Program-made: the position numbers and the translations under genes
In this document: piece after piece, positions 1 through 44,568 of the stretch
Position numbering within the stretch: position 1 is the stretch's first letter
How the letters are laid out: every line of letters begins with the position of its first letter
Notes under the pieces: model-generated
What the model saw: only the letters and a program-made list of their open reading frames with translations
Told to the model about the DNA's origin: nothing
Databases searched by the model: none
Virus genome (UHGV): UHGV-0171754
Length of the DNA: 44,568 nt
Source of the DNA: a virus
Strand: one strand, 5' to 3'

Positions 1-300
1 GGGGCCAATGACCCCCGTCTAGTCTGAAAGACTGGGCTTTGTCCCGCCTGTCCCGATCGGCTAAACCCCGCGGCAGCACTGGCGGGGACAGGGGTGCTGT
101 CCCGCCTTGTCCCGCCCCATTCTGTCCCGCTTTTTGTCCCGTTTGTTTTATGCACGAAAACTGAATAGATATTCACATTTTGGAGGCGGGACAGATCGGG
201 ACAGCACCCCTGTCCCGCTTTTAATTTATGCAATGAAAGTGAGTATATATGCTGTTTAATGGTGGCGGGACAAAACGGGACGTCCCGCCTGTCCCGCTCC
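1..300. repeat. Element A: dense array of about 13 GTCCCGC / GCGGGAC heptamers in both orientations, following the junction hairpin
   Basis: Copies at about 41-47, 50-56, 83-90(rc), 99-106, 110-116, 124-130, 136-142, 186-193(rc), 197-203(rc), 212-218, 265-272(rc), 277-283(rc), 291-297; no ORF of note on either strand. Confidence 0.8.
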
Positions 301-301
301 G

Positions 302-978
302 TTATGCGGGGTTCTGCCGCGCCATTTCATCCAGCGCAACGCGTTCCATTAGCTTAATATCTTTAAACGCACGCTGCGCGTTTTCGACGCCATGCATCTT
401 AAACAGCCATTCCAGTACGCCGTAGTCGATGCCGTATGCGCCACCGAATCCGGTGCGCCATTGCGTGGAGCAATCTGTGAAGACGGCGACTACCTTCGCG
501 TTGTCGGGCCATAGCGCAACTGGTGGGCAAACATCTTCAGGGGCCGCGCCCCATAAACTCGCGGCTAAATCTTCGGAGGGTGGCGGCGGGCCATAAAAGC
601 GTCGCGCCGCCTCAATTAGTTTTTTTCACGCAATCCCATCAGTTCAAGATAGTACGACGTATGGAACACGCCGAACGCGCGAGGATAGTTAACTACCAGG
701 CGGCGGACGTTCTCCGCGTTAAATTCGTCAGGCAGATTCCAGCCTTCAGCGACGTGCATGATGGCCTCGACCATAACGTTAAAGCCTTCCGGGTCGTTGT
801 CGTCATATTCCGACAGCTTGCGCTCCGTGTCCTGCATGGTCTGCGAAAACTCGTCAATCGGGCGGTGGCGTACTGTAAACGTCATTTTACCCGGTTCGTT
901 CTCACCAGGGCGCGGGATCTCAATCGGCAGCTTAAAGGTCGGTTTAGGGTCTAGTGTAAAGAGTGGTGCTTTAGCCAT
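302..978 (-). CDS. Tail assembly chaperone GT fusion made by programmed -1 ribosomal frameshift
   Basis: Heptamer A AAA AAC (minus strand, plus coordinates 619-625) precedes stop TAA (616-618); the -1 frame stays open for 107 codons (LIEAARRFYGPPPPSEDL...DEMARQNPA) to TAA at 302-304. Confidence 0.6.
616..978 (-). CDS. Tail assembly chaperone (lambda gpG-like)
   Basis: 120 aa ORF starting MAKAPLF with GGAG RBS 8 nt upstream; lies between major tail protein and tape measure genes; ends in slippery site A AAA AAC directly before TAA. Confidence 0.65.
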   Translation of the reverse strand: MAKAPLFTLDPKPTFKLPIEIPRPGENEPGKMTFTVRHRPIDEFSQTMQDTERKLSEYDDNDPEGFNVMVEAIMHVAEGWNLPDEFNAENVRRLVVNYPRAFGVFHTSYYLELMGLREKN

Positions 979-994
979 TGTAGTATTCTCCAAT

Positions 995-1016
995 AAAAAG
1001 GGGCCATACAGGCCCC
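995..1016 (-). terminator. Intrinsic terminator after major tail protein gene
   Basis: Stem ggggcc/ggcccc with 5 nt loop, followed on the minus strand by a T5 run. Confidence 0.55.
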
Positions 1017-1046
1017 ATATTAACACCCGCTATTTAAGCGACCAAA

Positions 1047-1772
1047 TTACGACAGCGCTTCAACCAGGTCCTTACGGTAAATAACCATATCGGATTGCAT
1101 GGTCAGAGTAGACTCCACCGTCTCCACGTTGTTTACTTCAGCGGACGGAATCTTCTGGAAAGACACCTTAGCCGGGTAAATACGAATTTCACCTTTGCCG
1201 CTTGCCGCTGCCGGGTTGGTGAACTTAATCACAGTGGTTTTCTGTGTGTCGTCCAGGTCTTCCAGAATCGGGCGGATCGGGTCTTCTTCGTCGTGGGTGA
1301 AAGTGTAGGTCTGGACCAACGGGTTTTTCGTGGTATTCAGACTGATCGCAGTATTCACCTGCAACGGCTGGAAGGTAGTAGTCTGCTGGTCGCCACCAGA
1401 CACGGCGACGTTAGTGATAAACGGGAAGTCGATAAAGCTCGACACCTTCACCACCTCGCCTGGTGTGCCTACGCTGAAAGCACCGGTCGGGTATTTGGTG
1501 GCGTCTTGAGTATCGAAGCGCGCCAGCGTAACGTCGTTGGTAGCCACTTTACCCACGATGAACGCTCGGTTCAGCGCACGGACCCACGGAGTTTTAGTGA
1601 ACATTACCACGTCGCCGACTTTCAGGCCATGAGAAGCCGCGCAGGTGATAACGCAACCTTTCGTAAGGTCAGAGATAGACGCGGCGGCGTTGGTAGCTGC
1701 CGTAACAGCGATGCCGCTGCCCAGTACGGACCCAATCTGGACGCTAGACCCGTTAGGAAGTTGATAACCCAT
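1047..1772 (-). CDS. Major tail protein
   Basis: 241 aa from ATG (MGYQLPNG) with AGGAG RBS; position immediately upstream of G/GT chaperone; terminator follows. Confidence 0.7.
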   Translation of the reverse strand: MGYQLPNGSSVQIGSVLGSGIAVTAATNAAASISDLTKGCVITCAASHGLKVGDVVMFTKTPWVRALNRAFIVGKVATNDVTLARFDTQDATKYPTGAFSVGTPGEVVKVSSFIDFPFITNVAVSGGDQQTTTFQPLQVNTAISLNTTKNPLVQTYTFTHDEEDPIRPILEDLDDTQKTTVIKFTNPAAASGKGEIRIYPAKVSFQKIPSAEVNNVETVESTLTMQSDMVIYRKDLVEALS

Positions 1773-1833
1773 AATGAACACTCCTGTTTAGATATACGGT
1801 TCAATGATACAGCACGCGCAGAATAGCGCCAAA

Positions 1834-9747: not shown

Positions 9748-11133
9748 TTAGTAGAAGTCTACAGTTGGAACAACGGCGATTGGGCGAATCACTGGGAACA
9801 AGTGCGCAATAGGATAGCCCGCTGCGTCATTCATGTGGTCCACCCCGGCCGTTTTATCCGGCTCGCCTTTCTTCAGGTCGTAAACCTGCTGTTCCAGACA
9901 TTTCGCTAGTGTAGGGCATTTATCCAGGTTGACAAAATACTGGCGTACACCCTTCGAGTTGCACATCATCGTATTCATCGCGATCAATCGGTCTTTCACA
10001 GGTGGGTTAACGCTGTCGTACTCCACCTCGAAGCCCGCATCTTCCAGTTGCGCGATATCGGACGACGACGCGTTGACCGTTTTGCGGGATTTTCCGCTGC
10101 TATCCGGATACACGACGACCCTACCGGCGGCACAATGTTCCGGGTAGCGCTCCTCGATCGCCTCAATCATAGCCGGGGTGTCAAACAGGTCCACAAATTC
10201 ATCCACCGCGTGAATCTCGTCGCGGAACTCCTTGTTCTCGGTGGTACGCTGCCGTCTTACATACACGACCGCCGCCATTTTCGTGACGTTAAAGTCTATA
10301 CCGATAATCAGCGTATCGTCCGGTTGTACTTCTTCGGTGCTGGCGTTCTCATCGCGGTTGAACATCTTGTACACCGCGCCCGACGTAAGGTTAACAAACA
10401 GACCGTTCAGGTACGCATCAATCAGGTTCGCCGGGTACTGACTGCGCAGCGTGTCGATAAAGTCTGCCGGTAAATGGTGGTTGTCGGTGGTCTTCGCCCG
10501 GATCAGGCGCTTTTGGCTATCCTTCTCCACCTCGAAAATTTGATACATCGCCCGGTAGCCTTCAGGCGTGGATACTATGACGAACTGGCGGACGAAGCCC
10601 GCACGCAGACGACCTAGCAATTTGTGATATGCCGCCAGCGCGACGTCTTGTTTCGTGGTGTCGAACTCGTCGGCAACAATCCACGCGGCGTTGACCCCGA
10701 TCAGGCGGGTATAGTTCTCCATTGATTCACAGATCACGCGGGTCCATTTGCCTTTCACCAGAACGCTATAGATCTTGTCCTGCTTGTTGAACTTCCACCG
10801 GAAGCCAGCCTCGTCGAAAGCCTTCTCCAGTTCCGGATACATGATTTTAACCAGGAGGGGAATAGTCGGCTCCGTAACAATGCCATCATGACCGGGGTTC
10901 AGGGTTAAAAGCTGGATGACCTTACGCGCAGCGACCCACGACTTTCCGCCACCGAAGCCAGAACACAGGCCGAGGATTTTAGTCTTAGTGTCCCGCAGTA
11001 GTTCGACCTGGTGCGGAAGGCAATCAGGCTGGTAAAGCCGCACCGCCTGCGCAACGCGTGTTGGGCGTGGTGGTCGGTTGCGCTTTGCGATCGTGCGCTC
11101 CAGTGCGCGGTGTTCCGCCGCATAGTTACGCAT
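9748..11133 (-). CDS. Terminase large subunit
   Basis: 461 aa; P-loop GLCSGFGGGKSW and acidic ADEFD motif in the N-terminal ATPase part; start overlaps the small-subunit stop (TAATG). Confidence 0.9.
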   Translation of the reverse strand: MRNYAAEHRALERTIAKRNRPPRPTRVAQAVRLYQPDCLPHQVELLRDTKTKILGLCSGFGGGKSWVAARKVIQLLTLNPGHDGIVTEPTIPLLVKIMYPELEKAFDEAGFRWKFNKQDKIYSVLVKGKWTRVICESMENYTRLIGVNAAWIVADEFDTTKQDVALAAYHKLLGRLRAGFVRQFVIVSTPEGYRAMYQIFEVEKDSQKRLIRAKTTDNHHLPADFIDTLRSQYPANLIDAYLNGLFVNLTSGAVYKMFNRDENASTEEVQPDDTLIIGIDFNVTKMAAVVYVRRQRTTENKEFRDEIHAVDEFVDLFDTPAMIEAIEERYPEHCAAGRVVVYPDSSGKSRKTVNASSSDIAQLEDAGFEVEYDSVNPPVKDRLIAMNTMMCNSKGVRQYFVNLDKCPTLAKCLEQQVYDLKKGEPDKTAGVDHMNDAAGYPIAHLFPVIRPIAVVPTVDFY

Positions 11134-16145: not shown

Positions 16146-16198
16146 GCAGTCTCAGACGAGGGGGGTGACAGACCCCCCGTCTAGTCTGAAAGACTGGG
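16146..16198. other. Element B hairpin: interrupted palindrome agacgagggggg-tgacaga-cccccc-gtct plus agtct-gaa-agact
   Basis: Same arms as the window-junction palindrome but different loop (tgacaga versus ccaatga). Confidence 0.6.
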
Positions 16199-16305
16199 GT
16201 GCTGTCCCGCTGTCCCGCTCCTCCCCAGGCCGCGTCATCCGGGGCGGGACAGGGGTGCTGTCCCGCTTTGTCCCGCCTCCTGTTTGTCCCGCTTTTTGTC
16301 CCGCT
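16199..16305. repeat. Element B: array of 7 GTCCCGC / GCGGGAC heptamers, homologous to window positions about 80-150
   Basis: Copies at 16204-16210, 16212-16218, 16245-16251(rc), 16259-16265, 16270-16276, 16285-16291, 16298-16304; block gggacaggggtgctgtcccgc...tttttgtcccg shared with element A. Confidence 0.8.
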
Positions 16306-16349
16306 TACTTTATGCAGTTTTATTGCATAACTATTCACTATATTTACAC

Positions 16350-16471
16350 TACACGGCAACCAATGCGACCAGCTAAAAACACTCAAAATGGCAACCAATG
16401 CGCGCAAAATTTAATCTCTTAGCGATATGGGAATTCCCATACCGGCAACCAATGCGCGCAAAATTTAATCT
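16350..16471. repeat. Iteron-like direct repeats (28 bp x2 plus one partial copy) with a 16 bp perfect palindrome between them
   Basis: ggcaaccaatgcgcgcaaaatttaatct at 16390-16417 and 16444-16471, partial copy ggcaaccaatgcg at 16354-16366; palindrome tatgggaattcccata at 16426-16441; the last repeat overlaps the 3' end of the primase gene. Confidence 0.75.
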
Positions 16472-18735
16472 TTCAGGTCGTCATCGGTCGCCGAAAGCGT
16501 GATGGGTATATTCGTTTTGATGACGATATTCGACGACCCATAGATGGCCCCAGTGTGCGGATCTGTATAAAAACCGAGTACGCCGCGCTCGACCATATCG
16601 TCGATTGCCTTCGTCGATGTGCCACCTTTCGCGAGTCCGGCCTGGCGGACAATTGCCGATTTACTGAATCCAGTATGGTCCGGGTTATCTTCCATCAGTT
16701 TTTCCAGGGCCGCATAAAGCACTTTCTCTTTTTCGTTGCGCGGTCCGGCGGTGTTCTCTTCCTTAACCGCGGCCTTGCCTGCTGCCTTCGCCTGTTCTAT
16801 AGCGAACGGTGCCAGGGCAACCGGTACGAGGTAGAGAGTCTCGTCGCGAGGCGTGGAGGCAATCGGCTTGACGTCCCATCCGGCAACCACGTCGCCGAAG
16901 TCTGGCCCAGTGCTGGTGGACTGGTGCGCCTCGAACGCTTCTGACTTGCGGAGATCTACCTTCACCTTGCACTTGAGCAGGACGAAGCCGCGCGGCGCTT
17001 GCTTGATGCCGTTACGTGACTTCTCATGATACAGGTTCAATTGCCCGGGCTGGTTGTCGTCCGGCTGTTCCAGGAAGAACGCTGAATCGACAGCACCATG
17101 CAGCGCGCCGGACCCGCGTGGGGTTCTGCTGCCGTTTGCACCCTTCGCCGGGTGGTGGATGACGCCCGCACTGCCACCTGTATTTTCCGCAATGGCTTTC
17201 AGCGCTTTGACCACTTCACCCATATCGCTGGCGTTGTTCTCGTCAAACGGTTTAGCATCGGCGGACCGCAGCGCAACAGTCTGGTTGAGTGAGTCGAACG
17301 CCACCAGGCCAACAGGTTCACCGTTAGCGGTGCGATTGATGAAGCTGATAACTTCACGCAAGCCGGACTTGCTTGTGATATCCCAGCCGCGTGATTGCAG
17401 GTCGATAATGTGCAGCTTGTCCAGGTCGTGCTCGTATTTAATCTGCAATGCTTCTTTGCGCTGGTTGGAGGCTTCGCCACCTTCCGCGTCGAAATAGAAG
17501 CAATGAGACTGGACGACCTTCGCACCGCCAAACGGAATACCGGCGGCAACCGCGCCCATCTGCCCAAGCACATAGAAAGACTTACCGATATTCGACTCGC
17601 CAGCCATGTACCAGGTCGATTTAAAGTTAATCAACCCCTCGATGATCGGGTCGTGCTTACTGAACAGCGCAACCGGCTCGTTATCCAGATCCGCATCGGT
17701 GCACACGCCGTATTCTTCGCCGTCGCCAACCGCATCAACAATATGTTCATAGCACGACTCCACTTCCTCGTCGTCCAGCCCCGGAAGGATGGCGGCGATT
17801 TGCTTACGGGACATATTGTGTGGCTCGACGTTCAGGTGGTCCGGGATCCCGATAAGACGTAGCGCCAGGTGCTGGTGTCTGTTCAGTTCCGAGCAACACT
17901 CGTTTCCGGTGTGCATACACTTGAAACGGATCTCGCCATCCTTAACCATTATGGCGGTGGACCCTTCGCCGCTGTGCAGATGTTCGTTCGGGCACGGCAC
18001 CTCATAACCACGCCCGGACGACAGTGGTTCGAATCCTGCCTGGAAGCACCAGTCCAGAATGCCGTCCGCCACTTCGTCGTCTCCCTTGGTTAGTTCGCGG
18101 CGTACTTCCTCTTTATCCACCCCCAGCTTATCCGCCAGGCGAAGCAGACGACGGACGCGGGCACGTTTGCCGTAATGACACTTTATTACAGACTGCTGGT
18201 GTGGCAGGTACATCAGGCGGTTTGTGTCTTTCGTGCAATCGTCGAAGTCCACATCTGACAGACCCAGTTGGGCTAACAGGGCATACTGGGCGCGTCCCAG
18301 GTCTTCAGCCGGTACAGGCTTGTCCGTCAACACCAGGAAGCGAGCGCAACGTGTTCCACCTTTCAGTGGGTGACGGTCGCCGGTTGTGGTGTGAAATACG
18401 TGTTCAAGACCCGCGTCAATGAACGCCTTACGGCAGCGGCGTAGGGTGCGGGTGTCGGTGCGGTCAATATCGAAGAACAGGATCGAGCGGTCCACCGCAC
18501 TGGTCTTACGACGCAATCCGTCACTGGTATACGCCACGATGCCGTCGGCCTTACGCTTGCGGCGCGCATACTCGGCTTTATCTTCCGTCTTGTTGATATG
18601 CACCGAGGAGATTTCTTTCGCATCATTGATAAATTCGAAAAACTCTTCGGTAGTCATCTGGAAGTTTTCCGCCCTGGCTTTTTCGCCTTTTTTAGCGGGT
18701 CTTGTTACGGCGAATTTAATTAAACTCATGGTCAT
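16465..18735 (-). CDS. DNA primase/helicase (N-terminal primase-like domain, Cys cluster, C-terminal RecA-like P-loop ATPase)
   Basis: 756 aa; Walker A AGESNIGKS; Cys cluster CPNEHLHSGEGSTAIMVKDGEIRFKCMHTGNEC. Confidence 0.7.
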   Translation of the reverse strand: MTMSLIKFAVTRPAKKGEKARAENFQMTTEEFFEFINDAKEISSVHINKTEDKAEYARRKRKADGIVAYTSDGLRRKTSAVDRSILFFDIDRTDTRTLRRCRKAFIDAGLEHVFHTTTGDRHPLKGGTRCARFLVLTDKPVPAEDLGRAQYALLAQLGLSDVDFDDCTKDTNRLMYLPHQQSVIKCHYGKRARVRRLLRLADKLGVDKEEVRRELTKGDDEVADGILDWCFQAGFEPLSSGRGYEVPCPNEHLHSGEGSTAIMVKDGEIRFKCMHTGNECCSELNRHQHLALRLIGIPDHLNVEPHNMSRKQIAAILPGLDDEEVESCYEHIVDAVGDGEEYGVCTDADLDNEPVALFSKHDPIIEGLINFKSTWYMAGESNIGKSFYVLGQMGAVAAGIPFGGAKVVQSHCFYFDAEGGEASNQRKEALQIKYEHDLDKLHIIDLQSRGWDITSKSGLREVISFINRTANGEPVGLVAFDSLNQTVALRSADAKPFDENNASDMGEVVKALKAIAENTGGSAGVIHHPAKGANGSRTPRGSGALHGAVDSAFFLEQPDDNQPGQLNLYHEKSRNGIKQAPRGFVLLKCKVKVDLRKSEAFEAHQSTSTGPDFGDVVAGWDVKPIASTPRDETLYLVPVALAPFAIEQAKAAGKAAVKEENTAGPRNEKEKVLYAALEKLMEDNPDHTGFSKSAIVRQAGLAKGGTSTKAIDDMVERGVLGFYTDPHTGAIYGSSNIVIKTNIPITLSATDDDLKD

Positions 18736-41842: not shown

Positions 41843-44485
41843 TCATCGTTTATAAAGTACACCACCCGGTTTCGTCGCCTTCACGATCTCGGCCTTCACC
41901 GCCTCGGTGATTTGCTTGCCGAACGCCTGCGCGGTACGGGGGTCCGGCCCGCTGACACTGGTATCCGTTTTACCAGTCCCCGTGTAAACGTTGGTCGTCA
42001 CGACCATACCACCGCCTGCTCCCGACGCGGCAACGCCAAGTTTACCGTCCGGCCCGCGCTTCAGTGGCATGATGGCCTCTGGCCCAGCCTCACCCATCAA
42101 TCCCGCGCCCTTAGCGAACGCCTGAACGCCATAACTGAAAAAGGTAGGCTGGCTTACCACTTTCCCCGAATAGGCCGCGAGATTGCCTCCTGCGTACGCT
42201 CCTCCGTCCGCATTCTTAGTTAGGCCAGAGAAGATAGCGCCGAACAATCCGTTTTTGCCGCCATCGCCACCGAAAGCGCTAACAATGGACTTGAATGCCT
42301 GCGATGTAGCCAGCTTGATTAATTCGCTCAGGATGGACTTAACCATATCCTTTGCGTTCAGCTTGCCAGTCTCGAAAAACTCGTTCATCGTGTCTTGCAT
42401 AGCGCCGAACGTGAATTTTGTGAGTGACGCCATCTGCGTATATCCGTTACCCATATCATCCACGCTATCCTTAAGCCCGCGACTGAATCCATCCCATAAC
42501 GAGGCGTTAGCGCCGGTCTGTGCTTCCTGCACTTCTCGCAGCTTAGACACCGCCTTGTCAATATCGGTATCGTTAGCGCCAACCCGCTTCAGGCGGTCAA
42601 TTAGCTGCAATTCTTCGCGCAGGTTTGCCGCTTCGCGAGTGGAAAGCGCATACCCCGCGGCGGTGGCTTTAAGTTCGGCGTTCTGGTTCTTAACGAAGGC
42701 ATCGATCTGCGCGTGCGCCTTAACCTGCTGCTCTTTCGCATCCAGCAATTTGGCTTCTTCGACGATCTGCTCGCGGACTTCCTTCACGCGCCCGAACTCG
42801 ACTAATTGCTGCTTTTCTGCTGCCGTTAGCGCTCTTTCTTTGCTCGCAGCGATTAACTGCTCATTGTCGGCGATCAGCTTGTTTAAGGCCGCTTGAGCGC
42901 GTTGCGTGCGGGTCTGCGTAGACGCGTTGGCTTCGATCTGCTTGCCGGATTCTCGAAGCTGGGCCAGTTCGCTCCGTGCGACTTCCAGCATTTTCATACC
43001 GGCATCCACGCGAACAGCCGCGGCCTTTTTCGGGGCTGGGTCTTTGTACCGCTCGTTGACCTGCTTAACCGCCTCGGCTAGTTCTTTCTCATCAATAACG
43101 CCGCGCTTATTCAGCAAATTGAGGCGGGCGATCTCGTCGGCGCGCTTCTTAGCGTTGGTGGCGTATTCCTTCTCGAACGCGGCGCGGTCACGGGCAGTGC
43201 GGTTGGCCTCCTCGTTCGCCTTTGCGGATTCGTCTGCGGCGCGGGCGTTGTCTCGCTCAGCACGGTTCCGCAGGGTGAGCGACGCCACCACTTTTTCCTG
43301 GGCGACCAGTTCGCTGTAAAGCATGTTAATACGTGCTTTCTGCGCTTCAGTCATTACCCCACCGGCAGCGTTTACCGCTTTCATCTCGGCATAATAAGCC
43401 GTGGTCATGCGCTGCAAGGACTCACGCGCTTTCATCTCGGACTCATTCGAGGACTGCGCGCGGCCCACATCCAGGATTGCATCCCACATAGATTTAGCTG
43501 CCGATGTGACGACGTTCATCGACCGCTCAAGCGTACCCATGTTGGACTTGATTTCATTGGTCATGCTGGTGAACGACGCAGCGGCTGTTTTGTTAGCCAA
43601 CGCAACTGCGTCTGTCTCACGACCCGCATCAACGAGCGACTGTACCTGCTGGATCTGCGCTTCGTTTACGACGTGATACTTATCCGCCAGCGCACGCAGT
43701 CCACCAACGGGGTCGGTTGACAGCTTCGCCACAGCCGCTACCACATCCTCGATCGGCTGGCTGGACACCTTCGCAAAGTCATTAACTACCTTAGCCAATG
43801 CGCCGAAGTCACCGCCCGCTTTCACACCCGCCGCCGCCAGCGCCTGGATTGTGTCACGCGTCTTGCGAAATGACCCGCCCATGCGCTCGGCGTTCTCGGA
43901 CAGCACCAGGATCTGGTTAGCGGTGAGGCCTGAAATATTACCGGACAGCGCCAGCGTCTTATTAAGCGCGGCGACCTGGTTCTCTGCCCGTGACGCGATT
44001 GCCACGCCCACGCCTAACGTCGCCGTTAATGCAGCGATGCCGATCCCTAACGGGCCGAGTGTGCCGACGACATAACGCAGCGTGTTTCCCAGTCCGCCAA
44101 ACGCCCCAGTAAGCTGCGGTAGCTGCTGAAGCATAACGCGGTGCACCGGCATACCCATCTCAAGCGTAACCGCGATATCCTGTAACTGGAATGCGGCATT
44201 CCGCGATGCGAATCCCAGGTTTTTGGTCGACATGCCTAATCGGCTGGCTAGTCGCTCCTGTTTCGTCATGCCGTCGGCGGCGCGCTGCGATTCAGTCGCT
44301 AACTTTTCCATTCCGCCCGCGGCGTCGCCAGTAACCTTTTTCGACTTACCGAGGGTGTCGTTTAATTTTTTGACTTTCTGTTCTGTGTTCTCGGATTTCT
44401 GCGCAAATGTGTCCAGCACAGTATTCGCCGTTTTAATTTGCGCGACGTCCGCCTTGAGCGTGATGCCCGCTGCCTGATCTGCCAT
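41843..44485 (-). CDS. Tail tape measure protein
   Basis: 880 aa; long Ala/Gln/Lys/Glu-rich helical centre; AAAAGGGGGA RBS; position after the G/GT chaperone and before M/L/K/I/J. Confidence 0.85.
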   Translation of the reverse strand: MADQAAGITLKADVAQIKTANTVLDTFAQKSENTEQKVKKLNDTLGKSKKVTGDAAGGMEKLATESQRAADGMTKQERLASRLGMSTKNLGFASRNAAFQLQDIAVTLEMGMPVHRVMLQQLPQLTGAFGGLGNTLRYVVGTLGPLGIGIAALTATLGVGVAIASRAENQVAALNKTLALSGNISGLTANQILVLSENAERMGGSFRKTRDTIQALAAAGVKAGGDFGALAKVVNDFAKVSSQPIEDVVAAVAKLSTDPVGGLRALADKYHVVNEAQIQQVQSLVDAGRETDAVALANKTAAASFTSMTNEIKSNMGTLERSMNVVTSAAKSMWDAILDVGRAQSSNESEMKARESLQRMTTAYYAEMKAVNAAGGVMTEAQKARINMLYSELVAQEKVVASLTLRNRAERDNARAADESAKANEEANRTARDRAAFEKEYATNAKKRADEIARLNLLNKRGVIDEKELAEAVKQVNERYKDPAPKKAAAVRVDAGMKMLEVARSELAQLRESGKQIEANASTQTRTQRAQAALNKLIADNEQLIAASKERALTAAEKQQLVEFGRVKEVREQIVEEAKLLDAKEQQVKAHAQIDAFVKNQNAELKATAAGYALSTREAANLREELQLIDRLKRVGANDTDIDKAVSKLREVQEAQTGANASLWDGFSRGLKDSVDDMGNGYTQMASLTKFTFGAMQDTMNEFFETGKLNAKDMVKSILSELIKLATSQAFKSIVSAFGGDGGKNGLFGAIFSGLTKNADGGAYAGGNLAAYSGKVVSQPTFFSYGVQAFAKGAGLMGEAGPEAIMPLKRGPDGKLGVAASGAGGGMVVTTNVYTGTGKTDTSVSGPDPRTAQAFGKQITEAVKAEIVKATKPGGVLYKR

Positions 44486-44568
44486 TATGCAGTCCCCCTT
44501 TTTATGCAGTTGCCGTCGGTCATTGTATCAGCGAATTTAAAACAAACCTTATTCAGTCTCAGACGAGG
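44486..44568. other. Left half of element A: untranslated leader upstream of the tape measure gene, ending in ...cagtctcagacgagg, which pairs with window positions 1-30 to form a GC-rich interrupted palindrome
   Basis: End of window plus start of window reads agacgagggggg-ccaatga-ccccc-gtct followed by agtct-gaa-agact; near-identical structure at 16146-16198. Confidence 0.5.

Follow-up and report, generated by a model that had tools for sequence, protein, structure and literature searches.

A predicted programmed −1 frameshift fuses the tail assembly chaperone to a DUF1799 extension in a Dhillonvirus genome

Virus genome UHGV-0171754, the whole 44,568-nucleotide (nt) stretch of DNA analyzed here and referred to as the window, carries on its minus strand an open reading frame (ORF) for a G-like tail assembly chaperone, hereafter G, and a DUF1799-containing frame, hereafter T, that overlaps the end of G in the −1 register. 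We conclude, with a probability of roughly 0.85, that the two frames are joined by a lambda G/GT-type programmed −1 ribosomal frameshift, yielding a 225-amino-acid (aa) protein, GT (Table 1). Megablast with positions 1..1800 returned 159 phage records at 80–95% identity, nearly all of them Escherichia and Shigella phages of the genus Dhillonvirus; the matches include SSL-2009a, HK578, JL1, YD-2008.s, and Sodalis phage SO-1. By sequence, the window is a Dhillonvirus (HK578/SSL-2009a-like) genome.

The junction between the frames reads ...GGA TTG CGT GAA AAA AAC TAA TTG AGG... on the minus strand. G begins at the ATG at 978 and closes in the 0 frame with CGT (630-628), GAA (627-625), AAA (624-622), AAC (621-619), and TAA (618-616), giving the C-terminus ...ELMGLREKN. 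The G stop is directly preceded by A AAA AAC, a heptamer that belongs to an A7 run (626..620). The −1 frame runs TGA (628-626) AAA AAA CTA ATT and so on, remaining open for 107 sense codons (625..305) up to TAA at 304..302. Because a −1-frame TGA precedes the heptamer and the 0-frame TAA follows it, the overlap of the two frames is confined to the canonical heptamer and the stop; it measures 10 nt. The chance that any X XXY YYZ heptamer would fall in register at one fixed position is 64/16384, or about 0.4%, and AAAAAAC occurs four times on both strands of the 44.6-kb window against eight occurrences expected. An earlier note, made from the sequence alone, had placed A AAA AAC directly before the stop of a chaperone ORF ending ...LREKN-TAA, and translation and frame check find this correct to the base. 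Its 107-codon extension holds as a count of open sense codons but not as a count of added residues, which is 105, since both −1-frame Lys codons overlap the heptamer.

The −1 frame has no ATG, GTG, or TTG near the junction. Its earliest ATG, GTG, or TTG is extension codon 75 (397..395), and the 74 codons before it, none of which is such a start, include the conserved DUF1799 core W..STQWR..G..G.DY. With no usual start until codon 75, ORF finders that demand a start codon miss the frame, as the earlier note had said of a Met-initiated ORF track, and GenBank relatives show a 96-nt stub ORF instead. Correspondingly, among the minus-strand ORFs of 40 aa or longer in the mechanical list for the window, none ends at 302, and a start-codon finder retrieves a 31-aa stub.

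We assessed selection on both frames using 19 distinct Dhillonvirus sequences, for which nonsynonymous (dN) and synonymous (dS) divergence are given as pairwise means. The T frame is open and full length in all 19, and its variable sites are distributed over codon positions 1, 2, and 3 as 22, 9, and 70. For T, dN is 0.025 and dS 0.385 (dN/dS 0.065); for G, the values are 0.007 and 0.434 (dN/dS 0.017). The −1 frame is under strong purifying selection and is real coding sequence. The heptamer is invariant across the same 19 sequences.

The arrangement extends well beyond the genus. The extension domain was found by tblastn in 1156 phage records, and a first scan of 45 IMG/VR loci encoding relatives of the extension placed T in a −1 frame with respect to the upstream chaperone ORF at all 45. 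Around the chaperone stop, the Dhillonvirus group (T identity to the window 88–98%) reads GAA AAA AAC TAA, and a second enterobacterial group (41–43%) reads GAA AAA AAC followed by TAA or TGA. The T1-like phages JLBYU09, Snitter, and Stevie (34–38%, the value for Stevie being taken from its relative Stevie_ev116) have GTA AAA AAC TAA, and A AAA AAC followed by TAA or TGA is present in 33 of 37 T1-like IMG/VR loci. A high-GC (guanine-cytosine) group (33–40%) has CTG GGA AAC TGA, with TAA in one locus, and G GGA AAC plus a stop was counted in 18 high-GC loci; Pseudomonas phage PS-1, Xanthomonas phage OP1, and Ralstonia phage YO102_2 (31–42%) likewise have G GGA AAC, followed by TAG or TGA. In Webervirus and Rogunavirus (31–33%), the Lys slip sites are shorter (GCA AAA G and GCA AAG G) and come earlier by one codon. 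The heptamer-then-stop layout is kept across clades with only 33–43% protein identity. Since G GGA AAC has just three A's, the conserved feature is not a homopolymer; judged from these alignments, it is a pattern of tandem slippage that ends at the chaperone stop or beside it, and it is not a start codon for T either.

Two kinds of locus depart from this layout. Klebsiella phage Trimon (L004, Webervirus) reads GCA AAA GTT TAA and phiJLA23 (L055, Rogunavirus) reads GCA AAG GTC TAA; neither has a full heptamer, and their sites are of the tetramer type (A_AAA and A_AAG) and precede the last sense codon of the chaperone ORF by one codon. Going by these sequences, recoding is apparently maintained there with another class of slip site. 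Separately, four of the 37 T1-like loci (L066, L068, L093, and L094, at about position 595-601) have five A's rather than six (GTA AAA ACT AA...), which would put T at +1 relative to G. The five-A loci are phylogenetically scattered, making homopolymer sequencing errors the likely cause.

Downstream of the heptamer, a stem-loop at 611..582 has a minimum free energy of −17.1 kcal/mol. At 7 nt from the heptamer, it falls in the 5–9 nt interval in which a stable, conserved structure was sought and is a candidate stimulator. Of the first 12 third-codon positions that follow the heptamer, a single one varies among the 19 Dhillonvirus sequences, compared with about 74% elsewhere. The 14-codon window of the hairpin has the lowest synonymous variation in the T ORF, with 3/14 third positions variable versus 67/91 elsewhere (hypergeometric P = 2.7e-4). 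The sequences are nearly invariant from the heptamer through the 3′ arm of the hairpin, and the two variable sites fall between the 7-nt arms. T1-like phages have a hairpin, GGGCGGUUU...AAACCGCCC, in the same codon-aligned columns, 6–7 nt after the heptamer. Because RNAalifold chose an off-register consensus on the T1-like loci, explicit column pairs were counted instead: the seven column pairs shared by Dhillonvirus and T1-like sequences are 95% paired, versus 28–65% for slid controls. Two of the pairs switch between the clades, one from C-G to U-A or U-G and the other from G-C to mostly U-A. An Rfam scan of positions 1..1200 at a permissive threshold returned no frameshift element family and only sub-threshold microRNA models.

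The two frames correspond to known protein families. G matches Phage_TAC_4 (PF08748) over residues 1-120, covering positions 1-124 of the 124-position profile (E 9e-24, 84.5 bits against a gathering cut-off of 21.1). T matches DUF1799 (PF08809) over residues 24-100, covering the complete profile (positions 1-80 of 80; E 3.2e-21, 75.8 bits against a cut-off of 26), and also matches PHROG 680. A single PHROG profile of 213 positions, PHROG 17368, aligns with G at positions 1-107 and with T at positions 150-212; as it spans both, fused members of the family already exist. No Pfam match to the lambda G or T families was obtained, as a scan at E ≤ 0.1 gave only Phage_TAC_4 and DUF1799. The pair would function like lambda G/GT but, judged by these profile matches, belongs to the Phage_TAC_4/DUF1799 families, which it shares with T1-like phages. 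The earlier note had called the frameshift a conserved G/GT-type mechanism. Anatomy, position, selection, conservation, and the precedent of phage Stevie (below) bear this out, with the qualification that the proteins are not of lambda's own gpG/gpT families. The comparison with chaperone pairs in relatives that it proposed also came out in its favor, the −1 frame being kept at all 45 loci of the first scan and the signal recurring in distant clades.

Structure and sequence searches added little. AlphaFold2 gave weak models for G and T (predicted local distance difference test scores of 69 and 51) from alignments of only 3 and 2 sequences, respectively, and Foldseek of the weak G model against the PDB gave no match at E ≤ 0.001 and none below E = 1. 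Searching PDB sequences with GT by phmmer gave nothing meaningful. A search of a large protein database with the 225-aa fusion returned three matches, two to G only and one to T only; because this search missed even near-identical Dhillonvirus proteins, it says nothing about novelty.

We compared the locus with characterized recoding systems. Citrobacter phage Stevie (CPT_Stevie15/16), a T1-like member of the Drexlerviridae, has homologous families (T1-like T is 34–38% identical by tblastn), the same gene order, the identical ...AAA AAC TAA signal, and a hairpin in the same columns 6–7 nt downstream. Its GenBank record joins both ORFs (coding sequence (CDS) 10144..10775, flag j2), and the accompanying paper describes a conserved translational frameshift (PMC4319613). 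In the window, T is followed by a gap of about 385 nt that is filled with CGGGACA repeats; in T1-like phages, the tape measure gene starts some 40 nt past the end of T. The T1-like hairpin also differs from the Dhillonvirus hairpin in its inner base pairs, and the −1 frame, closed by TGA at the heptamer in Dhillonvirus, stays open about 23 codons further upstream in Stevie.

Phage lambda slips at G GGA AAG, well upstream of its G stop, whereas the heptamer described here ends in AAC and forms the last two codons before the stop; the sequence families differ as well. The organization is otherwise alike: lambda gpG and gpGT come from a pair of overlapping ORFs flanked by the tail tube and tape measure genes, and a low-frequency −1 slip on an X XXY YYZ heptamer close to where the first ORF ends produces a C-terminally extended fusion (PMC5009743). 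By analogy, the roles in chaperoning the tape measure and recruiting tube subunits would also be alike. The lambda system was worked out by Levin, Hendrix and Casjens in 1993 and by Xu, Hendrix and Duda in 2004, 2013, and 2014 (reviewed in PMC5009743). We applied the G/GT-type criteria of Xu, Hendrix and Duda 2004. The locus has two ORFs on the same strand between the major tail and tape measure genes, with the caveat of the 385-nt non-coding gap; the second ORF overlaps the first in the −1 frame and has no start or ribosome-binding site of its own; and an X XXY YYZ heptamer lies in register.

The heptamer itself has a precedent in the same host. A_AAA_AAC is a proven −1 site in Escherichia coli, where it operates in insA-insB′ of IS1 at low efficiency and with no established stimulator (PMC4066793). 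The IS1 product is a transposase fusion and not a tail chaperone; the locus described here has, in addition, a conserved downstream hairpin and an adjacent stop. The g-t sites of the haloarchaeal tailed viruses HCTV-1, -2, and -5 comprise two heptamers that are also seen in the Phage_TAC_4/DUF1799 family; these viruses, set beside our family by description only, have archaeal hosts and unrelated protein sequences.

From these comparisons, we propose the following course of events. Most ribosomes would translate G (978..616) to its TAA and release the 120-aa protein. In a small fraction, the tRNA-Lys on AAA (624-622) and the tRNA-Asn on AAC (621-619) would slip back by 1 nt and re-pair with AAA AAA (625-620), so that the next codon would be CUA (619-617). 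Reading would then continue for 105 codons to TAA (304-302), generating GT with the junction ...LREKN-LIEAARRF... and a C-terminal half formed by the DUF1799 domain. The GC-rich stem-loop probably stimulates the slip, and the 0-frame stop immediately after the heptamer may add a "shifty stop" contribution. By analogy with lambda (PMC5009743), the tape measure protein would be coated by G and by the G part of GT, the T part would recruit the tail tube protein, and neither part would end up in the virion; on the same analogy, the weak heptamer would account for the low G:GT ratio. In lambda, the G:GT ratio is 30:1 (PMC5009743). A weak A_AAA_AAC suits a product needed at a few percent, as is lambda GT.

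A more specific possibility, which we hold only tentatively and consider doubtful as matters stand, is that the 0-frame stop is itself part of the recoding signal in a "shift-or-terminate" design. Slow termination at UAA or UGA would let the P-site tRNA-Asn slip from AAC to AAA. A stop adjacent to the heptamer is conserved in Dhillonvirus, in most T1-like phages, and in the high-GC clades. If such a design were true, the G:GT ratio would be tied to release-factor activity and hence to host physiology, and the Phage_TAC_4/DUF1799 pairs would constitute a distinct mechanistic variant of G/GT rather than a plain tandem slip with a hairpin.

Several observations weigh against a programmed ribosomal frameshift at this locus. 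A_AAA_AAC is a markedly weaker shifter in E. coli than A_AAA_AAG (PMC4066793; PMC5009743). The GT fusion in Dhillonvirus is predicted from sequence; proteomics of Dhillonvirus EE09 lysates detected only G (CDS21, 2 peptides), using a database that contained T only as fragments and lacked GT. The tape measure gene lies about 385 nt beyond the T stop and not directly after it, unlike in lambda and T1-like phages. The stability of the hairpin exceeds that of shuffled sequences only modestly (z = −1.8 for a 54-nt fold, with 13/200 shuffles as good; z = 0.03 for a 101-nt fold). There is no covariation of the hairpin inside Dhillonvirus because it is invariant there, and the double changes between clades, which amount to about two events and are accompanied by amino acid changes, are supportive and not decisive. 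In view of these folding values, the case for the hairpin rests on synonymous-site suppression and cross-clade position. Finally, an A7 run is present, and one extra A would give the same frame as the ribosomal slip.

This last point raises the alternative of transcriptional slippage, in which RNA polymerase would add one A at the run and the GT junction would read ...REKK-LIEAARR rather than ...REKN-LIEAARR. Slippery runs at which transcription realigns productively are known from bacteria (PMC5009743), and the four T1-like database records that differ by one A show the run to be length-labile, at least in sequencing. The homologous high-GC sites argue otherwise: G GGA AAC, with three A's only, keeps the X XXY YYZ register and the adjacent stop, and for this reason transcriptional slippage is disfavored. 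The Webervirus and Rogunavirus sites, GCA AAA G and GCA AAG G, likewise indicate that a long homopolymer is not conserved as such, and stimulation of the ribosome fits the conserved hairpin found 7 nt downstream. For E. coli RNA polymerase, moreover, runs of about nine or longer are usually needed if slippage is to be efficient. We therefore consider this route improbable. Slightly less probable still is that the DUF1799 ORF is a separate 104-aa gene read from ATT (616..614) by termination-reinitiation coupling. ATT is a permitted table-11 start, and stop and start would share one base (UAAUU). HK578 annotates a CDS (HK578_016) from exactly this ATT overlapping the G stop, with a note likening the ORF to gp16 of Sodalis phage SO-1, which lists gp15 and gp16 here by name, and for one distant relative (P0003) the call begins at an upstream Met of its own. 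Reading the sequence before the ATT reveals no Shine-Dalgarno sequence, and the equivalent codon in other clades is no start, being AAA in T1-like phages, AGA, ACA, or GAG in the high-GC group, and ATA in the enterobacterial group; all of these clades nevertheless keep the slippery heptamer. Both PHROG 17368 and the Stevie record treat G and T as a single protein, and T must be tethered to G for function in the lambda paradigm (PMC5009743).

The −1 frame could also be a decayed or non-expressed remnant, with the 120-aa chaperone as the only product. No annotation pipeline calls the full extension ORF, and the EE09 proteomics showed G only. A remnant does not accord with a dN/dS of 0.065, with a frame that is open and full length in 19/19 distinct sequences, with a DUF1799 match at 3e-21, or with homologues in 1156 phage records, and we regard it as excluded on account of the selection signature.

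Table 1. Features of the G/T locus and its neighbors in the window
Feature	Position	Strand	Details
Major tail (tube) protein gene, upstream neighbor	1047..1781	minus	Phage_tail_3 E = 2.8e-32; relatives annotate major tail protein
Terminator-like hairpin GGGGCCTGTATGGCCCC and T-run	1000..1016	minus	Between tail tube gene and G; terminator scan
Ribosome-binding site GGAG	988..991	minus	9 nt 5′ of the G ATG; read from sequence
G-like tail assembly (tape measure) chaperone ORF	616..978	minus	120 aa, 14.0 kDa; Phage_TAC_4; PHROG 569
TGA in the −1 frame	628..626	minus	Directly 5′ of the heptamer; three-frame translation
Slippery heptamer A AAA AAC	625..619	minus	X XXY YYZ register; last two G sense codons
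Candidate stimulatory stem-loop GGCGGCG-C-G-AC-GCU-UUUAU-GGC-C-CGCCGCC	582..611	minus	7-nt spacer UAAUUGA (618..612)
T-like extension	302..619	minus	−1 frame, 105 aa (LIEAARRF...RQNPA), TAA 304..302; C at 619 read twice
Predicted frameshift product GT	complement(join(619..978, 302..619))	minus	120 + 105 = 225 aa, 25.6 kDa
Tape measure gene, downstream neighbor across the window ends	41843..44485	minus	TMP_2 7.5e-43; Tape_meas_lam_C

On the minus strand, the genes follow one another as Phage_tail_3, G, T, and TMP_2 (Table 1), and in relatives the tape measure gene is contiguous with the chaperone pair. A terminator between the tail tube gene and the chaperone gene is annotated in phage CS16. 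The mechanical ORF list starts G at a GTG at 1026 (616-1026, 136 aa), which lies inside the terminator hairpin after the tail tube gene. We prefer the ATG at 978, which is preceded by a GGAG ribosome-binding site, coincides with a Pfam profile match beginning at residue 1, and agrees with the annotations of relatives. Plus-strand ORFs over 302..978, such as 523..954 (143 aa), were rejected, as the Pfam matches are on the minus-strand frames; antisense ORFs over this interval are also disfavored by the codon-position pattern of substitutions, which is consistent with the minus-strand frames.

The gap between T and the tape measure gene has features of its own. The motif CGGGACA occurs in 23 copies in the window, compared with 6.1 ± 2.3 expected. 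Eleven of these, in both orientations, lie in the non-coding gap of about 385 nt (1-304 plus 44486-44568), and seven further copies lie at 16203-16303 (region 16150-16310), adjoining a 756-aa ORF at 16465..18735; AT-rich spacers separate the copies. The gap array, with 8–11 copies, is present in every Dhillonvirus locus checked and absent from Stevie and more distant groups, in which the tape measure gene lies within about 40 nt of T. The array may be a candidate set of binding sites for a phage regulator, or an origin. The gap also holds a long inverted repeat (85..216) with 32-nt arms, 85-116 and 185-216, that are 91% complementary, which explains the spurious Rfam microRNA matches.

Both CGGGACA arrays end in a shared module of about 50 nt, GCACCCC(A)GTCTTTCAGACTAGACGGGGG-loop-CCCCCCTCGTCTGAG, which forms a long imperfect hairpin. 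The module is located at 1-45 plus 44540-44568 and at 16150-16200 (minus strand), so that coordinate 1 of the window lies inside it. Within the gap, a promoter-like GGTTTGTTTTAAATTCGCTGATACAAT comes after the module, and the tape measure gene's ribosome-binding site and ATG come next. This layout suggests that a terminator is followed by a separate promoter for the tape measure gene. Immediately past the T stop, a rho-independent terminator is annotated in HK578 and a repeat_region in phage "rolling". Beside the second array, at 16346-16476, are three direct copies of GGCAACCAATGCG, two of which extend to a 33-nt repeat, GGCAACCAATGCGCGCAAAATTTAATCT, with 94% identity and 54-nt spacing; these repeats are in a non-coding stretch downstream of the 756-aa ORF. 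The published EE09 cos sequence, ATCTTAAGGG, has no exact copy in the window and therefore does not account for the point at which the window begins.

Within the phage collection, 159 Dhillonvirus records match the −1 frame. Eight Dhillonvirus records examined in full have no GT join in their feature tables, and the feature names of 60 of the 159 records give no sign of a GT fusion. In these records, the interval is shown empty, split into 31–50-aa "hypothetical proteins", called "tape measure protein", or, in HK578, started from ATT; labels used include "hypothetical protein", "tail length tape measure protein", "tape measure chaperone", and "DUF1799 domain-containing protein". Full-text literature searches combining Dhillonvirus or HK578 with "frameshift" found nothing relevant. 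The predicted frameshift is an unannotated Dhillonvirus instance of a well-known mechanism, for which the T1-like phage Stevie already carries the join. Separately, the 120-aa chaperone is widely mislabeled "tail length tape measure protein" in RefSeq and in annotations derived from PHROG (e.g., NC_012223.2, PP925847.1, and PP786691.1). PHROGs 569, 680, and 17368 bear this description, and the mislabel propagates from them.

The finding leaves knowledge of tail assembly unchanged, and its main value is practical: a complement(join(619..978,302..619)) feature would correct the annotation and supply the right entry for proteomics. Beyond this, the family provides a clean comparative set whose members combine A AAA AAC or G GGA AAC with a stop right behind it and a hairpin at constant spacing. 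Such a set could be used to probe how, in bacteria, a low frameshift rate is set jointly by an adjacent stop and a weak heptamer ending in AAC.

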